Of a stretch of 24,666 bases of DNA, positions 3,693-19,398 are shown piece by piece (the first letter of the stretch is position 1; each line of letters begins with the position of its first letter). A model generated the notes under the pieces. That model ran no database searches, had not been told where the DNA came from, and saw only the letters and a list, made by a program, of their open reading frames with translations. Source of the stretch: a virus (lineage: Duplodnaviria; Heunggongvirae; Uroviricota; Caudoviricetes); the IMG/VR virus record IMGVR_UViG_2687453297_000002, positions 1 to 24,666 of that record. One strand, 5' to 3'. The position numbers were made by a program, and so were the translations under genes.

Positions 3693-4114
3693 CTTCCCCT
3701 CCCGGTCAGTTCACGGATCAACACTGTGAGCAGCTCTGGCGATGGATTTTCCAGCGTCATGTTACCGTGACGGAATTCCACCTTGCAGGAACTGGCACTG
3801 ACTCTGGTCTGAGTGGAAGTGGATAAAGACGGCGCAATGGCCGCCACAGGTTCTTTCTGCTCATCCGGCGTTATTTCTACAGGTAATAATTCAACGCCAG
3901 TGTCAGAAGAGGTCGTTACCGGAAGACGCCGCGAAACACGCCCTTCGTTCTGCCAGAGCCTGAGCCATTTGAAAATAACATTATCATTGACGCCATTTTC
4001 ACGTGCAATCTGTGCAACACAAGCTCCAGGTTGTGATGCCAGTTCCACCATACGAAGTTTGAATTCATTCGAATAGTTTTTACGAGGTTCTTTTCGCCAG
4101 TCCTGTAATTCCAT
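3689..4114 (-). CDS. IS66-family accessory protein TnpA (Orf1)
   Basis: 141 aa with a helix-turn-helix-like N-terminus (…NYSNEFKLRMVELASQPGACVAQIARENGVNDN…), typical of IS66 Orf1. Confidence 0.85.
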   Translation of the reverse strand: MELQDWRKEPRKNYSNEFKLRMVELASQPGACVAQIARENGVNDNVIFKWLRLWQNEGRVSRRLPVTTSSDTGVELLPVEITPDEQKEPVAAIAPSLSTSTQTRVSASSCKVEFRHGNMTLENPSPELLTVLIRELTGRGR

Positions 4115-4195
4115 ACTTAGATGTCCGTCTATATCAGATGGGCGTCTAAGTTACCAATTCTCGTCTGATGGCTACATACGGCGGTCAGTTTACGC

Positions 4196-6130
4196 TTACC
4201 CATTATATTCACAATAAACTTCATTAACCGCTTTACCATTTGTCACCACATGAAAGTGACCATCAGCTTTTGCAATACATCCAAATGTGGTTTTCTCTGC
4301 AAATACATCTGTCGCTGCGCTATTAACATACGAGCCTGAAGGGTTTGACAGACTCATATATAACTTACCACTACCTCTGTTGATTGCTGCAATTGCTGAT
4401 TGCCCGGTATTGGCTGCTATATCCCACACGCGGGGTGCGGCGTTTGGTGCAATATCCCAGTTTTTATGAATCTCAAGTAAAAAAGTAAATGGTAACTTAT
4501 AAAGATTATTTCTGGTGGGGATACTAACCAAATCACTGGCTCTTGTCGTTGCGCTGCCTCCTGAAATAATAAATGATGATACACACGGCCCATTCTCTAC
4601 TTGTGGGGTGGCAAGATAAATATAGTCACCAGATACTGTTGCCCCACCCTGCTCAGGAGAATACTGTATCTGAGAGCCTATTTTTAACTCACCATCAATT
4701 GCCTGAATCGTTGCCTCTGCAAAAATCCAGCCCGTGGTCTTATCCTTCCTGACTCGTGCCGTAATTCTGCCGGCAGCACCACCTGTCATATTAATTTCAA
4801 GCGTTTGCGTATCAATGTACGCATCGCCAAGAAAAGTTGTTGCACTACCATCATACTTATCAAACCGTATACGTAACCTTACCTGTCGTTCTGTTTTAAA
4901 ACGGCATGAGGTTGTCACGTACTTGTTATCGCCTGAGACATCAACTGACTTTGTTGCAGCAATTGATGCCATATTAATAGCCGAAGTTTGCCCAACCAGA
5001 GAATCGTTGCAGACAAACTTTCCATAAGTAAAACCAAAACTATCCGTCCCAGTTTCGGGCACATCCATGTTTGATGACTTCCCCCAGCTGGCTGGACTTT
5101 CCGAATTGAGCATGTAGTTCGTTCTTTGTCCCTCAATAAGCAGGCCATCACACTCAAATCGCGGCTCATTAATTTCCGCCGTTTTCAGTTCGCCAGATTT
5201 GTTGATATATGTTGCCGTTGATGCGCGACTGAAATTAACCTGTTTATCACTGGCGACCTGAACCACATCGTCACCAATAGCTATTTTTTTATAGCCCGGA
5301 GAAAAACCCGCAATCATATCCAGTGAATCGTTAAACGGTATCCACACATCAGGCAGCGGCGGCACTATATTCGCATAGGGCTCTGCAGTCACTTCCGCTG
5401 CGGCTTCTGCGCGGTCTGCCGCCTTTTCAGCTCGTGTCGCTGCCGACAGAGCCTCATCCTTTTTCTGCCCGGCCTTTGTTGCGTCTGCTGCAGCCTCCCG
5501 CGCTTTTGTGGTGGCGACTCCGGCATTTTCAGCGGCTGACTCTGCATTACGGCGGGAAGCCTCTTCACTGTCTGCGGAGGCTTCTTCTGACGCACGGGCA
5601 TTTGTCTCTGAACGTTCTGCCGCTGTTGCTGCGTTTTGTGCGGCTGTTTTTGAAGAAGCTGCCGCTTTCGCGCTGTTACCTGCATTCGTCTCTGATGTTT
5701 TCGCCGCGTTCCTGGACGATGCCGCTGCTGTTTCTGATTTCTTTGCTGCCGCTGCGCTCTGAGAGGCGGCTTCAGCGTTGCGTGCCACATCCTCCACCAT
5801 TACCTCAAAACGACGCAATGCCTCCGGCATGACATCCTCTTCCGTCATGGCCCCCAGAAAATCATTCAGCGTCCCCGGCTTAGAATCCTCATACACGGTG
5901 ATGGTCCCGGCATGTGAAGGCGGAAAACCTTCAACCAGCAGGATAACGCTGTACTGGCCATACTCGACATCCATGCTGTAACGTCCGGCTTCATCCGGAT
6001 TTTCTGAGGCCACCGTGTTCACCACAACCGTGGTGCTGTTACGTTTTGCTTTGAGCTGAATGGTGCAGTTCTGTATCGGTTTTCCTGCACCGTCTTTCAG
6101 CACGCCTGAAATCTGTACTGCCATATTCAC
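4196..6130 (-). pseudogene. stf: Lambda Stf-like side tail fibre, 3'-truncated by IS66 insertion (reads into the IS inverted repeat and stops after one IS-derived codon)
   Basis: N-terminus MAVQISGVLKDGAGKPIQNCTIQLKAKRNSTTVVVNTVASENPDEAGRYSMDVEYGQYSV… closely resembles lambda Stf (from memory), followed by an Ala/Ser-rich repetitive shaft. The stop codon at 4198..4196 lies inside the IS66 terminus. Confidence 0.8.
4200..4207. repeat. Target-site duplication CCATTATA (right copy) of the IS66-family insertion
   Basis: Exact copy of 1660..1667. Confidence 0.85.
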
Positions 6131-6185
6131 TCCACAAATAAAAAAGGCGCCATTTCTGGCACCCGTATCTGGGTTATAAAATTCA

Positions 6186-6308
<123 letters not shown>

Positions 6309-6340
6309 TTAGTGTATGATGGTGTTTTTGAGGTGCTCCA

Positions 6341-6616
6341 GTGGCTTCTGTTTCTATCAGCTGTCCCTCCTGTTCAGCTACTGACGGGGTGGTGCGTAAC
6401 GGCAAAAGCACCGCCGGACATCAGCGCTATCTCTGCTCTCACTGCCGTAAAACATGGCAACTGCAGTTCACTTACACCGCTTCTCAACCCGGTACGCACC
6501 AGAAAATCATTGATATGGCCATGAATGGCGTTGGATGCCGGGCAACCGCCCGCATTATGGGCGTTGGCCTCAACACGATTTTCCGCCATTTAAAAAACTC
6601 AGGCCGCAGTCGGTAA
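6341..6616 (+). CDS. insA: IS1 InsA (transposition repressor)
   Basis: 91 aa [43 protein letters not shown]…, the canonical InsA zinc-finger protein. Confidence 0.95.
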
Positions 6617-7038
6617 CCTCGCGCATACAGCCGGGCAGTGACGTCATCGTCTGCGCGGAAATGGACGAACAGTGGGGATACGTCGGGGCTAAATCGCGCC
6701 AGCGCTGGCTGTTTTACGCGTATGACAGGCTCCGGAAGACGGTTGTTGCGCACGTATTCGGTGAACGCACTATGGCGACGCTGGGGCGTCTTATGAGCCT
6801 GCTGTCACCCTTTGACGTGGTGATATGGATGACGGATGGCTGGCCGCTGTATGAATCCCGCCTGAAGGGAAAGCTGCACGTAATCAGCAAGCGATATACG
6901 CAGCGAATTGAGCGGCATAACCTGAATCTGAGGCAGCACCTGGCACGGCTGGGACGGAAGTCGCTGTCGTTCTCAAAATCGGTGGAGCTGCATGACAAAG
7001 TCATCGGGCATTATCTGAACATAAAACACTATCAATAA
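6535..7038 (+). CDS. insB: IS1 InsB reading frame (expressed as InsAB' transposase by -1 frameshift)
   Basis: 167-codon open frame overlapping the insA 3' end; carries the canonical IS1 InsB sequence. Confidence 0.9.
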
Positions 7039-7120
7039 GTTGGAGTCATTACCGATTAGATGAATATTTATCGCGCAGTGACATCATTTTTTAATAATAG
7101 TTCAAAAAAAAGGGCGTACA

Positions 7121-8203
7121 ATGAAAAAATTAACAGTGGCAATTTCTGCTGTAGCTGCATCAGTACTGATGGCGATGTCTGCTCAGGCAGCTGAAATTTA
7201 TAATAAAGACAGTAACAAGCTGGATCTATACGGGAAAGTTAATGCCAAGCACTACTTCTCCTCTAATGATGCAGATGATGGTGATACTACTTATGCCCGT
7301 CTTGGCTTCAAAGGTGAAACCCAAATCAACGATCAACTGACTGGTTTCGGTCAGTGGGAATATGAATTCAAAGGCAACCGTGCTGAATCTCAAGGTTCTT
7401 CCAAAGACAAAACCCGTCTTGCATTTGCAGGCCTGAAATTTGGTGATTACGGCTCAATCGATTACGGCCGTAACTACGGTGTAGCATACGACATCGGTGC
7501 GTGGACTGACGTCCTGCCAGAATTCGGTGGTGATACCTGGACCCAAACAGATGTGTTCATGACTGGTCGCACTACTGGTGTTGCAACTTATCGTAACAAC
7601 GACTTCTTTGGTCTGGTCGATGGCCTGAACTTTGCTGCTCAGTATCAGGGTAAAAATGACCGCACTGACGTAACTGAAGTCAATGGTGATGGTTTCGGTT
7701 TCTCCACTACTTATGAGTATGAAGGATTCGGCGTGGGTGCAACCTATGCTAAATCAGATCGCACTGACGGTCAGGTCGCCTATGGTAAGAGCAAATTCAA
7801 TGCCTCCGGCAAAAATGCGGAAGTATGGGCTGCAGGCCTGAAATATGATGCGAACAATATCTATCTGGCTACCACATATTCTGAAACTCAGAATATGACC
7901 GTTTTTGGTAATAACCATATTGCAAACAAAGCACAAAACTTTGAAGCAGTAGCACAATATCAGTTTGACTTCGGTCTGCGACCATCTGTTGCTTACCTTC
8001 AGTCAAAAGGTAAAGACCTTGGTGTTCATGGTGACCGAGACTTAGTCAAGTATGTCGATGTCGGTGCTACTTACTACTTTAATAAAAACATGTCCACTTT
8101 TGTTGATTACAAAATCAACTTAATTGACGATAGTAAGTTTACCAAAACAGCTGGTATTGATACCGACGACATCGTCGCTGTAGGTCTGGTTTATCAGTTC
8201 TAA
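7121..8203 (+). CDS. nmpC: Phage-encoded OmpC/OmpF-family general porin (NmpC/Lc-like), apparently intact
   Basis: 360 aa with signal peptide [23 protein letters not shown], beta-barrel porin motifs and the C-terminal …VGLVYQF. Near-identical to NmpC/Lc as I recall it. Antisense to the Q/late transcription direction, as nmpC is in DLP12. Confidence 0.85.
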
Positions 8204-8220
8204 TCTGACTTACGAAAAAG

Positions 8221-8254
8221 ATATGTTGCGGGAGGCTTTGCCTCCGCAACATAT
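8221..8254. terminator. Strong hairpin 18 nt downstream of nmpC; minus-strand intrinsic terminator candidate, possibly bidirectional
   Basis: Stem ATATGTTGCGGGAGG / CCTCCGCAACATAT with loop CTTTG. Preceded on the plus strand by AAAAAG, so on the minus strand it is followed by CTTTTT. Confidence 0.55.
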
Positions 8255-8341
8255 AAGTGGAGCCCTCAAGCCACTTCCTTTAGAAGCACTACCTTGCTTC
8301 TTACTATATAAACCTTCTGTTATATATTACCCTTTATTTTG

Positions 8342-8366
8342 GGGGCGTTTCCACGCCCCATTTTTA
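8342..8366 (+). terminator. Intrinsic terminator candidate on the plus strand
   Basis: Stem GGGGCGT / ACGCCCC with loop TTCC, followed by ATTTTT. Confidence 0.55.
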
Positions 8367-8391
8367 ATAACTTTTAGTAAACAATTGCATA

Positions 8392-8775
8392 TCAATTAGA
8401 ATTATTAGCAACGATATCCATATCTAACCGGATATCTAATGCCATTAACATCCCTTCAATTATGCCCTCAGCCTTCTGTAACCTTTTCCCGATATAACCA
8501 TCCGAGCAGCAATGCTTACTTGCCAGTGACATGAATGTCATACCACATACATAATAATCTACTAATAAATCGTGTAAATCGCTGTTGTTCTTTTTCAGAC
8601 GGGCCATGCACCCGCAAATGATCATCGCGTCATCGTCACAACATTGCGGGCGAGATTTTACTTTTGAAGGAATTAATCCCTTAAAACCGGCGGCAACGGA
8701 CGACCAGGTCACATCTTCATGATTATTAGCCGCCCACGCTCCCCAACGCTCAAGAACCATCTGAATATCACGCAT
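8392..8775 (-). CDS. quuD: Late-gene antiterminator Q (DLP12 QuuD-like)
   Basis: 127 aa from the ATG at 8775 ([21 protein letters not shown]…), with GGAG 8 nt upstream; the listed ORF starts at an upstream TTG. Contains a Cys cluster. Sits upstream of the expected late-promoter region. Confidence 0.7.
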
Positions 8776-8997
8776 CAACTTACTCCACAAAAATCAGACC
8801 AGAACGCCAATTACAAGCAAAAATCAACAAAACAGTATTAGTTGATTGTTATCTCTGACTTCATACTCCTGCTCCTGTCAGGGTTTTGGCGTAATTCTTC
8901 AGTATTCGGTAATCGGTCAAAACAGAACCAGGAAAACGATATAAGCGCAGGCGCACCCAGCGGCGGCGAAGACGCTCTGCCATATAAGACTCAAACA

Positions 8998-9360
8998 TCA
9001 TTCATCTCCCAGTTCAGTGATAGTCAGCTCCAGCTTCCCACCTTTGGTAACGGGCATCTTCACAACGCGGTAATCAACGACCTGAGCATCATCCAGCCAG
9101 AAACCTGCTTTGGTGAGTGCGTCAAAAGCGGCCTTTTGCAGATTATCAAGGTCACGGCGACGGCGATCCGGCATGTGGCACTCAATGCTGATTTTCACAG
9201 GAATAGCCAGGCCGATATCCAGCATTGCGTTTTTAATGATTCGGGCGACATTATCGCGGTATGCCTGCCCCTCTGCGCTGATATGCGTGCGTCCGCGATT
9301 ATGGCGGTAATAGCGATTATTGCTCGGCGGCCAGGGTAATGTGATGCTGTAGGTATTCAC
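8998..9360 (-). CDS. rusA: Holliday-junction resolvase RusA
   Basis: 120 aa [26 protein letters not shown]…, near-identical to E. coli RusA as recalled. Confidence 0.9.
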
Positions 9361-9647
9361 GCCTCAATAACCCCCTCTTTCAACCAGATAACCTGTGTTC
9401 TCGCCATACCTTCCAGCGCGCATTCTTTTGCATATCCAGCGTCAACAAAATGCGTGCGACGGTCGATTTCGTCGTGGCAGGCAGAACATGCAATGGTGGC
9501 AATCAGGTCTGGCGGTTTGATACCGGTACAGCACAATCCAGCCAGCCGGATATGTGCCAGTACTGACGTTTCAGGATTGCCATTACATACGCCAGGGATT
9601 CTTACCTGGCATTCCCGACCACGCGCTGCTTTTCTCAAATCAGCCAT
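9357..9647 (-). CDS. ybcO: YbcO (DUF1364) prophage protein, Cys-rich
   Basis: 96 aa from the ATG at 9647 ([32 protein letters not shown]…), with AGGAGG 5 nt upstream. The listed ORF 9357..9686 has an N-terminal extension with no ribosome-binding site. Confidence 0.8.
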
Positions 9648-9810
9648 GATTCCTCCTTGCTGCCAGTCGCAACCATTTTTTATCAACCAGGCTGGCGGTA
9701 TACCCGAGCAGTGTTGGTATTTCGGATGGCTTCAGCTCAGGTTTACGCTTACGACGATTTGGTACTTTGTAGATGTGTCCGTTCATGACACGAATAAGCG
9801 GTGTAGCCAT
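9640..9810 (-). CDS. ninE: NinE-like small protein (not in the supplied ORF track; under 60 aa)
   Basis: Manual translation of the minus strand gives [56 protein letters not shown] (56 aa). AGGAGG upstream; the start overlaps the ybcN stop (TAATG) and the stop overlaps the ybcO start. Confidence 0.75.
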   Translation of the reverse strand: MATPLIRVMNGHIYKVPNRRKRKPELKPSEIPTLLGYTASLVDKKWLRLAARRNHG

Positions 9811-10265
9811 TACGCCTCCTGCTTGTCGCGCAGCAGCTGGAACTCGCAGCTCTGCGGAATAGTCAGGTGGCAGCCAATATTCATCGCCCAGGCTTCAACC
9901 TTACACAGGAAGACATACATCTCTCCGGTATCAAGATCGGAGGTATGGCGTAACGACTGGATAGTAGTGATTTCGCCGGTTACGACATCAACCAGGTCCT
10001 TGGTTTCATAACCGAGGTATGTGTGTTTGAGAGCATCTTTTACCCATGCTGCGGTAGCGAACGATTTCCCCCTGCTGATGAGGTATTCACTGATTTCGCT
10101 GTACCACATATGGCTGAGTGCATTCTGGGAAAGACTGCGTTTCTCACGCCACGGTTTAAGCACCATGCGAAAGCATTTTCCGTCCTCCAGATAAGGCTGG
10201 ATCTGCTGGCCGATAGCGATGAAGTTACCGCGATGCAGTTTGATGCCATCTTGTGGTAGGTTCAC
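9810..10265 (-). CDS. ybcN: NinB/YbcN-family DNA-binding recombination-associated protein
   Basis: 151 aa [15 protein letters not shown]…, matches DLP12 YbcN as recalled. Confidence 0.8.
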
Positions 10266-10712
10266 GCTTCACCTCCACAGAGGTCAGACGCTGGATGCAA
10301 AAAAACGCAGGTGCATTTCTGCATCTGTGAAGGGAGAAGAGAGTTTGGATTGTGTGTGCGCATAAACGTCCCCGTTTAGCGCAGAAGTCACCGGAGTTGT
10401 TCAGGCTCCGGTGATACAATTATGGCGAATTGATTATTCATAATCAAACAAGATAAGGTCTCAAACTTCATGCAAGCCAAGATTTATTTCTGACAGAATT
10501 ATACAAAGAAGCTATTGGTCAGAATCTACTCGGACTGTAAAACATACGCATAACCTTAAGCTCTCACTTTAAGCATTGTTGAAATAATAGCCGTCAAGTA
10601 CAACCTTAACCACGACTGGGATATTTCCCTGGCTACCACGAGTTGTACGGCTATTAAACTGCCGTTAAATTCAGTAAGAGAATTTCATCCGATAAGTCAA
10701 GGCATGTAAAAC

Positions 10713-11756
10713 ATGAAAATTAACAAGATATTATCATCTGCAACACTATTGTATGGTATGTCAATGGCCATGTCGGTCGGGAGTTGTGCAACACCTGTCC
10801 AGACTAATCTTCCTGGTTACACCCCGGGTGCAGATATCATTAGTGTTTCACCGACCAGAAACCAGGTCGATCTCATTGGTGATGTTGTTTATTCCCAGAT
10901 AAAAGGAACTCGTTCTGTCAGACAGCTTCACATGTCAGTTCTTGTCCCGCGAACAAATGATTTAAAACCAGCCATTATTTATTATCCCGGCGGCGGATTC
11001 ATGTCTTCTGAACATGACAAATTTATTGAAATGAGAATGGCTCTGGCAGAAGCTGGTTTTGTTGTGGCCGCTGTAGAATACAGAACAATTCCTGATACAT
11101 TTCCAGCACCAGTTGAGGATGGAAAAGCTGCAATACGTTACCTGAGAGAGCATGCCAGCAATTATGGGATTGATCCTCAAAGAATCGGAGTTCTGGGTGA
11201 CTCTGCCGGTGGATGGCTTGCCCAGATGATGGGAACTACAAATGGTGACAAAACCTTTGATAAAGGTGACTTTCTTCAGCAATCCTCAGATGTTCAGGCA
11301 GTTGCCACACTTTATGGGATTTCTGACTTGTTGAATATTGGCGAGGGGTTCCCTGAATCAGTGCAGGAGGTTCATCGCTCTCCTGCCGTAACCGAAGCCT
11401 TAATGATCAATGGCCCTGCATTCAGAAATTTTGCGGGAGCCCCCATCACAGCGTCAAAAGAAAAAGCGCTAAACGCCAGTCCAATCGGACATATGAAAGG
11501 AGTAAAACCCCCATTTCTTATTATGCATGGTAGCAAAGACACTCTGGTTTCACCTGAGCAAAGCGCCAAACTATTCAGGATGTTGAAGAAGAACGGTGAT
11601 AACGCTGAGTACGTGCTGGTAGAAGGGGCCGAGCATGGCGATAATACATGGTATCAGCCAATTATTATAAACAGAGTTGTTGAGTGGTTTACTAAAAACC
11701 TGGGAACCCCCATAAAAACCGCTACCCAACAACAAAAAACAAACGCTGACCTGTAA
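10713..11756 (+). CDS. Secreted or lipoprotein alpha/beta-hydrolase (esterase/lipase, GDSAGG nucleophile motif); cargo gene
   Basis: 347 aa with an N-terminal signal peptide and possible lipobox (…MAMSVGSCATP), GDSAGG serine motif, and downstream Asp and His (…HGSKD…, …AEHGD…). Opposite strand to the flanking phage genes; AT-rich upstream region. Confidence 0.7.
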   Translation: MKINKILSSATLLYGMSMAMSVGSCATPVQTNLPGYTPGADIISVSPTRNQVDLIGDVVYSQIKGTRSVRQLHMSVLVPRTNDLKPAIIYYPGGGFMSSEHDKFIEMRMALAEAGFVVAAVEYRTIPDTFPAPVEDGKAAIRYLREHASNYGIDPQRIGVLGDSAGGWLAQMMGTTNGDKTFDKGDFLQQSSDVQAVATLYGISDLLNIGEGFPESVQEVHRSPAVTEALMINGPAFRNFAGAPITASKEKALNASPIGHMKGVKPPFLIMHGSKDTLVSPEQSAKLFRMLKKNGDNAEYVLVEGAEHGDNTWYQPIIINRVVEWFTKNLGTPIKTATQQQKTNADL

Positions 11757-11761
11757 AAAGC

Positions 11762-11781
11762 AGCCCGCACTTATGCGGGCT
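11762..11781. terminator. Hairpin after the esterase gene; terminator candidate, possibly bidirectional
   Basis: Stem AGCCCGCA / TGCGGGCT with loop CTTA. Preceded by AAAAAG (T-run on the minus strand) and followed by AACCTATTT. Confidence 0.45.
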
Positions 11782-12105
11782 AACCTATTTCACTCGATTC
11801 AAAAGAAATTATTTTTAATGGGGGCGTGACCAGCCTCTCGGTGCTCAGATACTTAATGAAGTGGAGTGGCATTCTGGCAAGAGGTTAACATCACCTGTTC
11901 GCCATAACCAAGCACGTGCACAAAGTTTGTTATCAGTGAATTGTTTTGTGATTGGGTATTGTTGAGCTACTAGAGCAAGAATGCCAACATCCAGTGACAG
12001 TGCCTATAGTAAAACTATAGCTCAGGGCGCTTCGTTCAAGATAGTTAATATCATATTAGTTACTTTACTTTCATACCATAGCACGGTTGAAAAAGTGATT
12101 ATTAC

Positions 12106-13632
12106 TCAAAAATAAACCTCACCATCAACCATATATTTAAGAGTACTTATCGCCTGCTGGGCGGATATTACTTTCATTAAAGGATAGTGTTTAAAAACAA
12201 TGCCATTCATAAAATAGATATCACAGGTTTTATTATCTGTATTAATTATAATTTTTTCGAATATTTTATAGGCAAGTGTACGACATAGCTCTCGCCCATT
12301 TTTACTGGTTAAATCAATAGCATGAAAATCACCAAGTGAACTCACCCCTTTACTCTTCAAAGTTTTTAATGATACCGAAGCCCTTCGTAATTCCTTATCT
12401 AATAGTCTTATTTTCTCTGCTATAGCGGTAACTTCAGGCGCGACAGACAATGCAACGATTAAATTATTAATTTTCATCTGAAGCTCAATAATTTTTAACT
12501 CTAAAGTTTCATTAGCATCTTTCTTGTTTTCAACTGGTTGAATTTTGCTACAATTAAAAAGCAATTCATTAATGATATTATAATCAACCAAATCTCTTTT
12601 TATTGATGGCCTGTCACATCGATGTAATCTTCTCATCGGACAAACATAATAGCCATGCAAACGTCCAGATACCGCATGAACAATCATGGTATTACCACAA
12701 GCCTCACACTTCATAACTGTTCGAAGTAGATTTATTAGCATAGGATTCTTGCTACTATTGCTAATACCAAAAGGTGCCAACCGAATTTCCTGTACAGCGT
12801 AAAACAAATCATCTGATATGACTCTGGGATAATAGCCAGCGATTTCACTTATCCCTTTCCCTCTTGCACGATATGAAGGTACGCATATACCTATCAGAGC
12901 TTTATTCGCTAATAATTTTTCAATTACAGAAGGCCCCCATGCACTTTCTTTTCCTGAAAAATTTTTTACAGCATGATCATTTAAATACTTAGCTATTGCA
13001 TTCAATGATCGCCTTTCCATCCTGAGTTTAAAAATTAGCTCAATCGTTTTCACCCTGTCGGGGTCTGGAATAAAAGCTGTTCTTTTGTCATCCAATGAGA
13101 GCCATCTCGGACAAGACGCCGTCATAATCGTGCCTGATTCCAGTGCATCCTGCCGTTTTTTCTTCCATGATAATTTAACCCGACTTGACTTTATCTCGCT
13201 TTCTTCATTTGCCCTTTGTGCTATAAGTATGGCTTTTATTAATGAATATGGCTCATTCAATGAGTCTATATTATAGACTGTATTATCGCAAAGAGTTATA
13301 ACATCAATACCGTGATTCAAAATCAATTTCAGACGCTCAATCGCTTCACCGACTTTTTCTCTTGAAAGTCTGTCCAGACTTTCAACTAACAATGTAGTCC
13401 CTGGCAATATGTAACCATGTTCTATAGCATCTAAAAATTCCGAAAAAGCTCCTGATTGTGCATGCTTTCCATTGAATGCGCTTAACCCCAAATCTTCATA
13501 CGTTACGGTATCAAGGTAATAATCACTATTTACCTTTAGCCATTCAGTAATAAGCCTTCTCTGGCGGTTTAATGAATCACCAGACATCTGACCTGGTGAT
13601 GAAAATCGCATATATGCTATGGCTTTTTTCAT
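12106..13632 (-). CDS. ybcK: Large serine recombinase (resolvase/invertase catalytic domain plus recombinase and zinc-ribbon domains), YbcK-like
   Basis: 508 aa. N-terminus AIAYMRFSSPGQ… with …LDRLSR… motifs of the serine-recombinase catalytic domain, and a C-terminal Cys cluster (CEACGNTM…YYVCPMRRLHRCD). Same length and position as DLP12 YbcK as recalled. Confidence 0.8.
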   Translation of the reverse strand: MKKAIAYMRFSSPGQMSGDSLNRQRRLITEWLKVNSDYYLDTVTYEDLGLSAFNGKHAQSGAFSEFLDAIEHGYILPGTTLLVESLDRLSREKVGEAIERLKLILNHGIDVITLCDNTVYNIDSLNEPYSLIKAILIAQRANEESEIKSSRVKLSWKKKRQDALESGTIMTASCPRWLSLDDKRTAFIPDPDRVKTIELIFKLRMERRSLNAIAKYLNDHAVKNFSGKESAWGPSVIEKLLANKALIGICVPSYRARGKGISEIAGYYPRVISDDLFYAVQEIRLAPFGISNSSKNPMLINLLRTVMKCEACGNTMIVHAVSGRLHGYYVCPMRRLHRCDRPSIKRDLVDYNIINELLFNCSKIQPVENKKDANETLELKIIELQMKINNLIVALSVAPEVTAIAEKIRLLDKELRRASVSLKTLKSKGVSSLGDFHAIDLTSKNGRELCRTLAYKIFEKIIINTDNKTCDIYFMNGIVFKHYPLMKVISAQQAISTLKYMVDGEVYF

Positions 13633-13887
13633 GGTGACACCTGCTAAAGTATGCTTTTATAAACCTTAGTGGTGAGATATGATTTTTGTTTAATTTTTAT
13701 TTAAAAAGACAATTAAGGTCACATTATCTTGAATATACAACAATAATCGTATTGCAATTTTCTTACACCATGGTCTTGAAAGATCAAAAGAATGAATAAA
13801 AACTAAAGACATTAACAAAAAGCATAAAACGAGGCCCATACAAATATACGAACCTCCATATTTTAGTCGTTTAAAAATAAATTATTT

Positions 13888-14220
13888 TTAATGTGGTGTG
13901 CTTCGTGACAATAAATTAATAACCAACACACCGGCACAAATCAACATCATGCCTATAATGGCTGGCAGGTCCAACCGTTGGCCGAAAAATCCCCATGATA
14001 GTAAGCTAATCAGGACAATACCGACTCCTGACCAGATAGCATAAGCAATCCCTGTAGGTATATAAGCCAGCGTCTGAGCTAATAACCAGAATGATGCACA
14101 ATAACAAATAATTGTACCAACAGATGGCCATAACCGTGTAAAACCTTCTGAAAACTTCATTAAGGTTGTACCAATGACCTCTGCAAGTATTGCACCACCA
14201 AGATAAATATAAGGGTTCAT
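13888..14220 (-). CDS. emrE: Small multidrug resistance (SMR) efflux transporter EmrE
   Basis: 110 aa from the ATG at 14220 (MNPYIYLGGAILAEVIGTTLMKFSEGF…), matching EmrE; the listed ORF has an 18-codon upstream extension. Confidence 0.9.
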   Translation of the reverse strand: MNPYIYLGGAILAEVIGTTLMKFSEGFTRLWPSVGTIICYCASFWLLAQTLAYIPTGIAYAIWSGVGIVLISLLSWGFFGQRLDLPAIIGMMLICAGVLVINLLSRSTPH

Positions 14221-14287
14221 AGCATATTCTTTCCTGTTCAAACTGGAGAGAATTGTACTACAGTTTGAACTCAACTCACCTGTTTCA

Positions 14288-14590
14288 TCATTGTGTACCC
14301 ATTGATGTTCTTTTATATACCCTCAATACCCGTTTCATCGCGGCACTCTGGCGACACTCCTTAAAAATCAAATTCGCGCTCACCTTTCCTTCCCGTTCTT
14401 CTCTGGTAGCGAACCGATAATACACCGTTCGCCAGACCTTACCATCAACGACCAGGATTCCTGCCCGCGCCATTTTAGCCACAGCCTGATTTATGCTGGT
14501 TACGGTTGCGCCTGTTACCGCGGCAACGTCCTGTGCACAGAAGCTCTTATGCGTCCCCAGGTAATGAATAATTGCCTCTTTGCCCGTCAT
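14288..14590 (-). CDS. ren: Ren-like protein (lambda Ren homologue)
   Basis: 100 aa MTGKEAIIHYLGTHKSFCAQDVAAVTGATVTSINQAVAKMARAGILV…, near-identical to lambda Ren as recalled. ATGA overlap with the P stop. Confidence 0.85.
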   Translation of the reverse strand: MTGKEAIIHYLGTHKSFCAQDVAAVTGATVTSINQAVAKMARAGILVVDGKVWRTVYYRFATREEREGKVSANLIFKECRQSAAMKRVLRVYKRTSMGTQ

Positions 14591-16300: not shown

Positions 16301-16846
16301 TCATATTGCCCCCAGCATGGTGGTGACCATCGCCATCAGTGGACCAGCCAGATCCGGGTCCACACGAAACATCGACACAATGCCTTCACTCATCTCCTTC
16401 AGTTTCTGGTGGCGTGGTGCGTTGAGAATGACAGCCTGTTTTGCCTCACTGAGTTCCTTTTCCATTTCAGCCAGCCGAGCCATGAAGCTATCCTGCTCAA
16501 CCAGGTGGCCGCGATATTCCAGCGGTAGTACCGCCAGAATTGCCGGGGTCAGTTCACGCACGTTATTTCGGTATTTTTCAGAATCGAATTTGTTATCGAG
16601 GAAGCGGAACAGCTTCTGGCGTGCACGGCTGACATCATCAGGAAAATCGATGGTGCCGCCGCCCTGCTCCCGATACTCATTCACAATGAGTGCGGCAACA
16701 ACATCCTGATTATCTGCAGCCGACCAGGCGCGAACGGCATCACGGATTTTTTCGTGGCCTGGCGCCTGTTTTGTTTGAGAACGATTTATCACCGCAGTCG
16801 GGCTAAATCCGCTAGTCTGTTGGTATGTAAGTGGTTGCATAGTCAT
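16301..16846 (-). CDS. Hypothetical early-operon protein in the cII position (possibly YdaT-family regulator)
   Basis: 181-aa ORF directly downstream of the Cro-like gene and upstream of O. Not lambda CII by sequence; the family guess comes from position and vague resemblance only. Confidence 0.4.
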   Translation of the reverse strand: MTMQPLTYQQTSGFSPTAVINRSQTKQAPGHEKIRDAVRAWSAADNQDVVAALIVNEYREQGGGTIDFPDDVSRARQKLFRFLDNKFDSEKYRNNVRELTPAILAVLPLEYRGHLVEQDSFMARLAEMEKELSEAKQAVILNAPRHQKLKEMSEGIVSMFRVDPDLAGPLMAMVTTMLGAI

Positions 16847-17901: not shown

Positions 17902-17981
17902 TACCAATTAAAAATTATCAACCGGGCATTGTGCTCATTCAGTAAAACAACTTAATTATTCATTTTAGAATGGAGAACTTA

Positions 17982-19043
17982 ATGGATACTTTAAAATATG
18001 AGAAATTCTCTGATTTTGATCACAATGACCCATTTTTTGACTCTTTAAAAAAAGATTATAAAGAGTTTCCTCTTTGGTTAGAAAAAAAAGCCAGAGAAGG
18101 AGAATCAGCTTATGTGCTCTATGATGACAAGCATAAAATCGAAGGTTTTATGTATCTAAAAGAAAATGATGATGCAAATGACATTAATCCAGCGCTCCCA
18201 CCAGGACGTCATCTAAAGATAGGAACATTCAAATTTGAATCTAAAGGCACCCTTCGCGGACAACGATTTCTAAAAAAAGCGTTTGACCATGCATTTTCAT
18301 CAAAATCTGATGATATTTATGTTACTGTTTTCGACAAACACGTCCATCTAATAAAACTTTTCCAAACGTACGGATTTTACATTCATGGTGAAAAAGAAAC
18401 ACATAACGGGAAAGAGTTTGTATATGCGAGGTCTTTGCATGAGCCTTATGGTGATATTTTATTAGATTACCCTCGAATAATGACATCAAGGGCCAACAAA
18501 TATTTACTGGCGATTTATCCCGAATATCACACTAGACTATTCCCTGATTCAAAACTTGTAAATGAATCACCAGATATTGTCAAAGATATATCCCATGCTA
18601 ACAGCATTCATAAAATTTACATATGTGGAATGCGTTCTGTGATGGGAATGAAAAGAGGAGATATCATTGTCATCTATAGAACCGGAGACAAAAAAGGGCC
18701 AGCTCGCTATCGTTCTGTAGCCAGTACATTATGTGTAGTTGAGAGCGTAAAAAATATTTCTGAATTTTTAAGCGAAGATAGTTTTGTAGACTATTGTATT
18801 CGTTTTAGCGTATTTTCTGAAGATGAACTCAGAAAAATCTATAAAGAACGTCGATACCCTTTCATTATAAGATTCACATACAATCTGTCTTTGCCAAAGA
18901 GACCCAATCGTGCTATTTTAATAGATCATGTGGGGCTAAATGGTTCGCGTGCATTCCGATGGAGTCACTTTAAACTCACAAATGAGCAGTTCTTAAAGAT
19001 CATCGAGTTAGGCAAGATAAATGAAAGTTTTATTATCCATTAA
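17982..19043 (+). CDS. Hypothetical two-domain protein in the rexA position: N-terminal GNAT-like fold, C-terminal PUA-like (ASCH/EVE-like) region
   Basis: 353 aa from the ATG at 17982 (GGAG 8 nt upstream; the listed ORF starts 4 codons earlier). N-terminal region shows a GNAT-like pattern (…LKIGTFKFESKGTLRGQRFLKKAFDHAF…IYVTVFDKHVHLIKLFQTYGFYIHGEK). C-terminal region (…KYLLAIYPEYHTRLF…MKRGDIIVIYRTGD…RSVASTLCVVESV…) resembles PUA-like domains. Domain calls are by eye and need HHpred or structure prediction. Confidence 0.5.
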   Translation: MDTLKYEKFSDFDHNDPFFDSLKKDYKEFPLWLEKKAREGESAYVLYDDKHKIEGFMYLKENDDANDINPALPPGRHLKIGTFKFESKGTLRGQRFLKKAFDHAFSSKSDDIYVTVFDKHVHLIKLFQTYGFYIHGEKETHNGKEFVYARSLHEPYGDILLDYPRIMTSRANKYLLAIYPEYHTRLFPDSKLVNESPDIVKDISHANSIHKIYICGMRSVMGMKRGDIIVIYRTGDKKGPARYRSVASTLCVVESVKNISEFLSEDSFVDYCIRFSVFSEDELRKIYKERRYPFIIRFTYNLSLPKRPNRAILIDHVGLNGSRAFRWSHFKLTNEQFLKIIELGKINESFIIH

Positions 19044-19398
19044 GCCTGAGTTTGCAGAAAAAATATTGAACGGAACAAAGCGGTTCGAGTTTCGTAAAGG
19101 TATATTCAAAAATCCGCAAATTAGCACCGTTGTTATTTATGCCACGATGCCATTAGGTAAAGTTGTTGGTCAATTCCGTATTGAATCAATACTAAGTGAC
19201 GAACCGGAATCTCTTTGGAAAAAGACGGAAAAACACGCAGGTATTTCTAAGCAATTTTATGACTCATATTATTCAGGTAGAGAAAAGGCCTACGCAATAA
19301 AAATTGGTGAAGTGGAAAGATATAAAGAACCAATTCCTATCTCTGCTCTAGGTAGTAATATTAAGCCACCACAATCATATCTTTACCTACCTGCGTAA
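19021..19398 (+). CDS. Small ASCH-domain-like (PUA-like fold) protein in the rexB position
   Basis: 125 aa MKVLLSIKPEFAEKILNGTKRFEFRKG…VVIYATMPLGKVVGQFRIESI…AYAIKIGEVERYKEPIP, matching the characteristic ASCH pattern. Overlaps the upstream gene by 23 nt and is followed immediately by a strong terminator. Confidence 0.55.
   Translation: MKVLLSIKPEFAEKILNGTKRFEFRKGIFKNPQISTVVIYATMPLGKVVGQFRIESILSDEPESLWKKTEKHAGISKQFYDSYYSGREKAYAIKIGEVERYKEPIPISALGSNIKPPQSYLYLPA

Follow-up and report, generated by a model that had tools for sequence, protein, structure and literature searches.

Three genes of non-phage character lie in the nin region of a lambdoid prophage, and the question they raise is how they came to be there: through a serine recombinase encoded among them, or through ordinary mosaic recombination. 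The locus occupies positions 10266-14287 (4,022 bp) of the virus record IMGVR_UViG_2687453297_000002, positions 1-24,666 of which, the whole stretch analyzed, are called the window here. The window is a lambdoid prophage, shown on the strand opposite to rightward phage transcription. The genes encode an exported alpha/beta-hydrolase, the large serine recombinase YbcK, and the multidrug efflux pump EmrE. The analysis favors, with a probability of about 0.75, a ren-to-ninB moron slot of an active lambdoid phage, filled with independent modules by ordinary mosaic recombination. The initial annotation placed the three genes between ybcN and ren, and the open reading frames (ORFs), the Pfam domains, and the RefSeq annotation of Escherichia coli SE15 agree with this placement; two small genes of the block, ylcH and ylcJ, were omitted from its list. 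The genes and signals of the block are as follows.

10262-10363, - strand: ylcH, 33 aa, orf33 of phage 82 (RefSeq, on identical DNA; phage 82 record X92588)
10449-10712, + strand: AT-rich region (38% GC) upstream of the hydrolase gene (homology break, GC content)
10713-11756, + strand: exported alpha/beta-hydrolase of the BD-FAE esterase family, 347 aa (ORF, Pfam, alignments, model)
11761-11782, - strand: GC-rich hairpin with its T-run on the - strand, four bases past the hydrolase stop codon
12106-13632, - strand: ybcK, large serine recombinase of 508 aa (Resolvase, Recombinase, and Zn_ribbon_recom domains)
13690-13839, - strand: ylcJ, small ORF of 49 aa upstream of ybcK, in a leader of 27% GC (annotation, GC content)
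13831-13856, - strand: hairpin resembling an intrinsic terminator, downstream of emrE (hairpin scan)
13888-14220, - strand: emrE, SMR multidrug efflux pump, 110 aa (NCBIfam, Pfam, E14 present)

Modules and scars in the ren-to-ninB slot

The base composition of the block departs from that of the phage genes, so the block reads as foreign. The G+C content is 50-53% in ybcN, ren, and P, 45% in the hydrolase gene, 38% upstream of it, 36% in ybcK, 27% in the ylcJ leader, and 41% in emrE. A 6.5-kb query spanning the locus was 100% identical to E. coli SE15 and to many B2 strains, and at least 80% of this query was present in 171 of the 5,426 complete E. coli genomes in which all nucleotide searches for population counts were carried out. 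The closest known phages are Perceval (OV696612), 4A7 (NC_049946), Lambda_4C10, 1W, 3W, D2, and PhiR47_2. The window is the integrated form of a Perceval-type phage: gene order, tyrosine integrase, porin, and lysis genes are alike, and the block shows no difference, being 100% identical in Perceval, 4A7, Lambda_4C10, 1W, 3W, and PhiR47_2. In the RefSeq annotation, the SE15 prophage is complete and runs from the head, terminase, and lysis genes through Q, rusA, ybcO, ninE, and ybcN to the block, and then through ren, P, O, the repressor, Gam-Bet-Exo, and xis to a tyrosine integrase that abuts icd. Perceval is prophage 2 of the adherent-invasive E. coli (AIEC) strain LF82 and is induced spontaneously (PMC9928086). 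Its record names a 'Multidrug transporter EmrE', a 'Large serine recombinase (DLP12 YbcK homolog)', and an 'alpha/beta hydrolase' between RenD and Orf/NinB. All three cargo genes are already annotated in public records, and the locus is a textbook case of the known nin-region mosaicism of lambdoid phages, in a phage that has been sequenced, named, and annotated; the LF82 paper (PMC9928086) discusses neither the hydrolase nor the recombinase.

The gene order in the DLP12 prophage of E. coli K-12 is renD-emrE-ylcJ-ybcK-ybcL-ybcM-ylcH-ybcN. BLAST comparison of the window with DLP12 showed two matching stretches, 8168-10448 (95.3% identity) and 12097-14501 (96.5%), separated by unrelated sequence. 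Thus, ren-emrE-ylcJ-ybcK on one side and ylcH onwards on the other are common to both prophages, whereas DLP12 has 309 unrelated nucleotides and ybcL-ybcM where the window holds a P22AR gene remnant, a copy of the emrE tail, and the hydrolase gene. The two also differ in that DLP12 lies at argU and is defective, while the window phage lies at icd and is inducible. The DLP12 arrangement given in the initial annotation, emrE-ybcK followed by ybcL and ybcM, was confirmed by BLAST and the K-12 annotation. The module exchange deduced there also holds: the hydrolase module stands in place of ybcL-ybcM, with homology breaks at 10448/10449 and 12096/12097, and ybcK has at least four different right-hand neighbors.

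Further variants of the slot were found in other strains. In strain 19KM1831, ybcK is followed by a P22AR C-terminal-domain gene, a hypothetical gene, and ylcH, and the breaks relative to the window fall at 10448 and 11888. Homology to K-12 and to 19KM1831 both ends at 10448, which makes 10448/10449 a recurrent breakpoint of the slot. It lies next to ylcH, the first gene of the conserved ylcH-ybcN-ninE-ybcO-rusA block, for which the phage 82 record X92588 annotates -35 and -10 signals. The ZH193 prophage, of the sequence type 131 (ST131) kind, has P, a 4.3-kb inverse autotransporter gene, and the hydrolase gene, without ren, emrE, or ybcK; homology to the window ends at 11760, four bases past the hydrolase stop. 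This autotransporter (intimin/invasin-like; 4,266 bp; positions 7364-11629 of the retrieved locus) stands tail-to-tail with the hydrolase gene and replaces ren-emrE-ybcK. In strain Rb-50, ren-emrE is followed directly by the convergent hydrolase gene.

The population counts agree with a free assortment of these parts. The hydrolase gene was found in 668 of the 5,426 genomes, most commonly beside the inverse autotransporter (439 genomes), in 171 genomes at the window-type junction with the P22AR remnant and ybcK, and in 2 at a junction with emrE. ybcK occurs in 1,423 genomes, in 674 of which ybcL follows. No ybcK junction was found in 497 of the 668 hydrolase genomes, and 1,252 of the 1,423 ybcK genomes have no hydrolase gene. 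The hydrolase and ybcK are therefore independent modules, the former going with the ylcH-ybcN side and not with ybcK. The hydrolase state could have been the ancestral one in most related prophages; it is instead a minority, so the exchange is real.

The third module, emrE, is more widespread. EmrE scored 240.6 bits against NCBIfam NF042984 (cut-off 226) and 2.1e-35 against Pfam Multi_Drug_Res, with E14 lying in the sequence MNPYIYLGGAILAE. The gene had been recognized initially, with a wrong extent: its start is at 14220, not that of the 128-aa ORF with a TTG start reaching 14274. In any context, emrE is present in 3,693 genomes, and ylcJ-ybcK adjoins it in 1,399 of them. A chromosomal island of strain IHE3034 between yedK and fliE (positions 3899-7342 of the retrieved locus) has the order porin-ybcM-ybcL-emrE and, lacking ybcK, is a pared-down DLP12-like remnant. 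Among the ~2,290 emrE-positive genomes without an adjacent ybcK, most show the shorter, 92.5%-identical emrE match of this island; SE15, LF82, and similar strains accordingly hold two emrE copies.

The region 11757-12105, initially taken as intergenic, is not a plain spacer, for within it lie a 38-nt duplicate of the 3' tail of emrE and ~280 nt left from a P22AR-type antirepressor gene. Together with the true emrE end, these scars are:

11786-11823, - strand: copy A of a 38-nt direct repeat (last two codons of emrE, stop, and 3' flank), core CATTAAAAATAATTT at 11806-11820
11828-12105, - strand: remnant of a P22AR C-terminal-domain (antirepressor-like) gene, with a tail of ~75 nt downstream of ybcK (nucleotide identity, tblastn)
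13859-13896, - strand: copy B of the 38-nt direct repeat (true emrE stop and 3' flank), core at 13879-13893

The two repeat copies are 84% identical, and the 15-mer CATTAAAAATAATTT occurs exactly twice in the window. In Rb-50, the copy A version of the flank links an intact emrE to the hairpin and the hydrolase gene. The P22AR remnant covers about the first half of the ORF only and is 79-91% identical to annotated P22AR genes elsewhere; against the 19KM1831 locus, the identity was 81.6% over 283 nt (tblastn 4.7e-19). The 309 nt downstream of K-12 ybcK were also considered as a diverged copy of this remnant, and no similarity was found. A perfect palindrome, TTAAAAATAA-T-TTATTTTTAA, at 13869-13889 contains the emrE stop codon; it is probably functionless, because it is imperfect in K-12 and 19KM1831.

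On the mosaic reading, the slot would belong to a phage of Perceval/4A7 type that uses a tyrosine integrase of its own to insert at icd in phylogroup B2 E. coli, and the three modules of the slot would have separate origins and assort independently: emrE with its terminator, the AT-rich ylcJ-ybcK, and the oppositely oriented hydrolase gene. The simplest course would be a cross between a 19KM1831-type phage (emrE-ylcJ-ybcK-P22AR and onwards) and an Rb-50-type phage (emrE-hairpin-hydrolase-ylcH). Homologous exchange within the conserved flank near ylcH-ybcN would account for the recurrent breakpoint 10448/10449. At the opposite end, the P22AR gene that follows ybcK may have been broken in its middle and joined illegitimately to the final two codons of a second emrE, which preceded the hydrolase gene; the 38-nt direct repeat and the pseudogene would be the scars of this join. 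This order of events is tentative: the extant sequences do not reveal it, and the Rb-50 arrangement could either have given rise to the window type or have come from it by a deletion between the repeats.

The exported esterase

The hydrolase is a member of the BD-FAE family, as its profile match, catalytic triad, and oxyanion motif all fit. It scored 153.9 bits against Pfam BD-FAE (PF20434; cut-off 26.8, E 5.5e-45), and Abhydrolase_3 also matched. GDSAGG lies at residues 162-167, the triad is S164, D276, and H308, and the oxyanion motif PGGG is at residues 92-95; the triad and PGGG were invariant in alignments of 12 and of 44 homologs. The closest PDB relatives by sequence were the goat-rumen Lip_vut4 (1e-37) and then carbohydrate esterases of BD-FAE type. 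The AlphaFold model (predicted local distance difference test score, pLDDT, 79; predicted template modeling score, pTM, 0.81) led in a fold search to the same neighbors as the sequence search, with matches to 6tkx and 6xyc at a model-based probability of 1.00. Pairwise ratios of nonsynonymous to synonymous substitution rates (dN/dS) among three alleles were 0.09-0.45. BD-FAE was described as a bifunctional feruloyl/acetyl xylan esterase whose active site, with a Ser-Asp-His triad, is shallow and open (PMC8165983). The hydrolase shares with BD-FAE of gut Bacteroidetes (PF20434; PDB 6tkx, 6xyc) and with Lip_vut4 (6nkf) the Pfam family, the alpha/beta fold, the triad, and the GxSxG elbow. It differs from them in its identity of 27-33%, in lying in a phage outside any polysaccharide-utilization locus, and in its proteobacterial signal of lipoprotein type. 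A literature search on Lip_vut4 gave no match.

The homologs at 62-80% identity belong mostly to plant-associated Enterobacterales (Dickeya, Pectobacterium, Pantoea, Kluyvera, Klebsiella, and Kosakonia) and to Rhizobium. The genes of the two nearest relatives (80% and 74% identity) lie directly downstream of a PF05870 phenolic acid decarboxylase gene, one of these pairs also having a LysR regulator; such a pairing makes sense if the esterase frees ferulate or p-coumarate. Nucleotide similarity to the non-phage relatives begins at 10703, 10 nt before the hydrolase ATG, and no decarboxylase remnant was found upstream of the gene by tblastn and blastn. The gene may have been acquired as an ORF alone, without its surroundings, from another enterobacterium in which a phenolic acid decarboxylase gene and the esterase gene form a pair. 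The Dickeya homologs, 63-70% identical to the hydrolase, have signal peptides and lack the lipobox cysteine. One of them is named 'Ferulate esterase' in UniRef. FaeD of Dickeya is a feruloyl esterase secreted by the Out type 2 system (PMC9007343); orthology of the UniRef-named homolog to it could not be confirmed.

From these relationships, the hydrolase is probably a feruloyl or acetyl esterase, and its most likely reaction would be the hydrolysis of hydroxycinnamoyl (feruloyl) or acetyl esters, either in the periplasm or on the cell surface. There is an appreciable chance, at well under even odds, that its substrate is instead another ester, such as short- or medium-chain acyl lipids, O-acetyl groups on host or bacterial glycans, or a xenobiotic, and not a hydroxycinnamoyl or acetyl-xylan ester. 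The best PDB relative, Lip_vut4 (33% identity), was deposited as a lipase, and the NCBIfam matches were all sub-threshold and spread over many esterase types (LipQ, acetyl esterase, PaeX, and tannase). Specificity in the BD-FAE family is broad, but its characterized founder is a feruloyl/acetyl xylan esterase (PMC8165983). The decarboxylase partner has been lost in the phage copy, yet it accompanies the two closest relatives, and the wider clade comprises mainly plant-associated Enterobacterales and Rhizobium, with one protein named ferulate esterase. The transcript is elevated in macrophages and in cell culture, settings free of plant esters, which again favors another substrate.

Chlorogenic acid is reportedly hydrolyzed by some human colonic E. 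coli isolates, a result ascribed to Couteau and co-workers (2001); the literature consulted confirms that six hydrolyzing gut isolates were described, though not that any of them were E. coli. The hydrolase could be the strain-variable cinnamoyl esterase behind such hydrolysis.

Export is indicated by the N-terminus. A relaxed lipobox, VGS|C25, fits the PROSITE-like pattern; the n-region contains Lys2 and Lys5, and the +2 residue is Ala. Signal peptides were present in all homologs, and the lipobox cysteine was confined to the E. coli protein and the two relatives nearest to it, a distribution that suggests a shift from soluble to membrane-anchored export. The hydrolase is a probable lipoprotein. 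By the Lol sorting rules, Ala at +2 would direct a lipoprotein to the outer membrane.

Transcription was assessed from the strand-specific RNA-seq data of LF82 (PMC9928086, S4 Table). In condition B1, which is probably 1 h in cell-culture medium, the hydrolase gene had 1650 and 1665 reads, ninB 10 and 17, and ybcK 54 and 61, so that hydrolase transcripts in the lysogen exceeded those of the flanking ninB and ybcK by ~40-50 times per kb. Expression was 4.8-fold higher in macrophages at 6 h than in stationary LB (q = 2.7e-13). The gene is accordingly transcribed in the lysogen independently of the phage lytic genes. The initial annotation gave it an AT-rich upstream region and a terminator hairpin of its own. 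The former was found (38% GC), and the hairpin at 11761-11782 exists, but its T-run is on the - strand. In Rb-50, this hairpin is the shared terminator of the convergent emrE and hydrolase genes; it primarily terminates transcription in the emrE/ybcK direction and is at best bidirectional.

A BD-FAE esterase with a lipobox, decarboxylase-linked relatives, and transcription in the lysogen is a credible lysogenic-conversion candidate. The role was proposed initially for the exported hydrolase, and it is upheld by the intact Ser-Asp-His triad, the export signal with its lipobox, and the LF82 data. Like the lambdoid morons bor, lom, and nmpC, the gene has foreign composition, is transcribed in the lysogen beside silent neighbors, stands at a module boundary, and has breakpoints at its edges. 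It differs from them in that no consensus promoter was found and in that the T-run of the adjoining terminator is on the phage (-) strand, serving the emrE/ybcK direction better.

Several observations speak against this view of the hydrolase. The box V-G-S-C departs from the strict consensus L-[AS]-[GA]-C, with G at -2, and cleavage by signal peptidase I instead of lipidation is possible. A simple scan of the + strand upstream of the gene found no sigma-70 consensus with at least 9 of 12 matches. The RNA-seq signal of the gene in stationary-phase LB was ~4 times the zero-read background, and the gene does not appear in the moron table of the LF82 paper for this condition (criterion: 5-fold over the regional median; PMC9928086). 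The more distant homologs examined were not paired with a phenolic acid decarboxylase, and the feruloyl assignment rests on family membership, the gene context of relatives, and a database name.

YbcK and the exchange

YbcK has all the hallmarks of an active large serine recombinase and is under purifying selection. Its Pfam matches were Resolvase (8.2e-19), PF07508 (2.3e-14), and PF13408 (4.6e-08). Absence of the catalytic serine would have spoken against the assignment; S11 was invariant, together with R9, D87, R88, and R91, across 18 homologs, down to 28% identity, and the zinc-ribbon residues C309, C312, C331, and C339 were kept in at least 90% of homologs. A YbcK-family profile matched the SPbeta integrase (1.5e-20; positions 142-470) and the A118 integrase (1.1e-13). 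The profile was needed, as phmmer with the YbcK sequence alone found nothing in PDB at E <=0.001. The PHROGs category of YbcK is PHROG 95 'integrase'. Pairwise dN/dS among the window, K-12, and 19KM1831 alleles was 0.05-0.09, and the ORF was full-length in 1,397 of the 1,423 carrying genomes. In the literature, YbcK is labeled as of unknown function; the K-12 ybcK leader holds a Rho/NusG-dependent terminator (PMC4150792), and ybcK overexpression increased sabinene tolerance (PMC7181518). With SprA/YokA of SPbeta and Int of Listeria phage A118, YbcK shares the three-domain architecture and the catalytic Ser/Arg; unlike them, it sits in the nin region of a phage with its own tyrosine integrase. 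YbcK was also considered as the integrase of this phage and was rejected, the tyrosine integrase and excisionase being at the icd junction.

Homologs of YbcK at 42-60% identity occur in several settings. In Atlantibacter, Yersinia, and Erwinia, homologs of 51-59% identity end prophages, past the tail-fiber assembly gene and at the host junction, as would be expected of a serine integrase gene followed by attP. The Atlantibacter gene is separated by 540 nt from the ssrA 3' end, that of Erwinia precedes lepA, and the Yersinia gene is followed by a tRNA 3' fragment and a P2-like prophage, to which the tRNA-like fragment probably belongs. In a Pantoea prophage, the homolog is in the nin region and is followed by a KilA-N gene. 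On a plasmid-like contig of Citrobacter koseri, a 49%-identical homolog diverges from an adjacent gene for a 555-aa protein with a faint Shufflon_N match, with TraD and MobA genes nearby, an arrangement that hints at a serine-recombinase-driven shufflon. As homologs occur at prophage-host junctions and in other such settings, the family probably includes true integrases. An att-like site shared downstream of the homologs in Atlantibacter, Yersinia, Pantoea, Erwinia, and Citrobacter was looked for by eye, and no common motif was seen.

A role of YbcK in the exchange is not supported, because neither conserved recombinase sites nor constant element ends were found. The initial annotation had suggested that it is the integrase or invertase of a nested element or a mediator of cargo exchange, and that conserved recombinase sites might lie in 11757-12105 and 13633-13887; no conserved site of this kind was found. 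The suggestion also conflicts with the junction counts given above (497 of 668 and 1,252 of 1,423), the variable far end, and the tyrosine integrase of the phage. The constant ends and empty site of a nested element were not both found: the emrE-side boundary of the ybcK segment is constant, whereas the distal boundary differs among K-12 (309 unrelated nt), 19KM1831, and the window; candidate empty sites are present in Rb-50 and IHE3034. Given the independent assortment of the modules, the varying distal boundary, the want of a second core copy in 19KM1831 and K-12, and the intact junctions, the evidence does not link YbcK to the exchange, in which it probably took no part.

A more specific proposal is that ylcJ-ybcK with its tail forms a self-inserting, excisable cassette of ~2.07 kb, with a YbcK site overlapping the emrE stop, the 38-nt repeats as attL and attR, and Rb-50 as the empty site. 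This is unlikely, and so is the recombinase-only 'phage-hopping' element that ylcJ-ybcK would then be. In the 24.7-kb window, the 15-mer has just two perfect copies, and these border the ybcK segment exactly; the Rb-50 junction consists of the left arm of copy A and the right arm of copy B over the shared core, as a crossover in the core predicts. Nevertheless, the repeats are 84% identical between flanks that are >96% identical, which points to diverged emrE flanks of two lineages and not to a fresh duplication, and attachment sites of large serine recombinases normally share just a short core. A ybcK segment of ~2.07-2.08 kb does occur or is missing at one point in two cargo backgrounds (K-12/IHE3034 and window/Rb-50); between K-12 and the emrE-ybcL island of IHE3034, 2,083 bp are present or absent 7 nt past the emrE stop, with AATAAT at both K-12 junctions. 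Its distal end nevertheless varies, being followed by the 309 unrelated nt in K-12 and, in 19KM1831, by a complete P22AR gene plus a further ORF, without any second core, and the putative distal arm in the window falls within the truncated pseudogene. The empty-site junction was seen in 2 genomes only, in a backbone ~4% diverged, and the full junction is intact in 171 genomes and in phage isolates. That YbcK is intact and under selection, and that its relatives sit at prophage-host junctions where integrases are expected, speaks for the cassette; strong purifying selection means that YbcK does something, which mosaic recombination leaves unexplained and which counts against it.

Very improbable is an invertase or cargo-swapping activity of YbcK at a site just downstream of its gene, bringing in the hydrolase here and ybcL-ybcM elsewhere: variable DNA does start near the ybcK 3' end (BLAST homology to K-12 stops 9 nt past the stop, with weaker similarity over ~75 nt) and is of at least four kinds, but the hydrolase lacks the ybcK junction in 497 of its 668 genomes, always beside ylcH-ybcN in the loci examined, ybcL-ybcM stands directly beside emrE without ybcK in the common yedK-fliE island, the hydrolase orientation is identical in all three architectures examined, and a search for the inverted repeats of an inversion switch found only short, imperfect pairs, none convincingly bracketing the module.

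Other prophage genes and the meaning of the locus

Directly downstream of the cI-like repressor gene, at the position of lambda rexAB, two overlapping genes (17970-19398, + strand) encode a 357-aa protein without a Pfam match and a 125-aa ASCH-domain protein. They match subunits A (2e-133) and B (7e-52) of the PADLOC candidate defense system PDC-M11. The top-expressed Perceval moron, 81-fold over background, is LF82_152 (PMC9928086), a 'transmembrane protein' two locus tags before the cI gene LF82_154. PADLOC gave no defense-system match for the hydrolase, YbcK, emrE, or ylcJ, and an Rfam scan of the window found no RNA family at the gathering threshold. Between Q and the lysis genes, on the opposite strand, lies an intact 360-aa porin gene of nmpC/ompC type (7121-8203, + strand; Porin_1, 3e-151), the K-12 copy of which is split by IS5; the Perceval porin is a moron at 10 times background (PMC9928086). 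The gene at the cII position (16301-16846, - strand) encodes a YdaT_toxin-domain protein (7.6e-30), annotated as CII in Perceval.

The remaining value of the locus lies in two uncharacterized proteins, an orphan serine recombinase that is kept under selection and a widespread putative surface esterase that lysogens express. The prophage-borne gene for this exported esterase was found in ~12% of complete E. coli genomes, including 439 with the ST131-type prophage, and its expression in lysogens extends to bacteria inside macrophages. Should the enzyme free hydroxycinnamates or acetate from esters of the diet or the host, it would give B2 extraintestinal pathogenic E. coli and AIEC a metabolic or colonization trait that varies among strains. 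For its part, ybcK is under strong purifying selection even in the defective DLP12 of K-12; its sites, if found, would close a long-standing gap in the K-12 annotation and could provide a new proteobacterial serine integrase for genome engineering.

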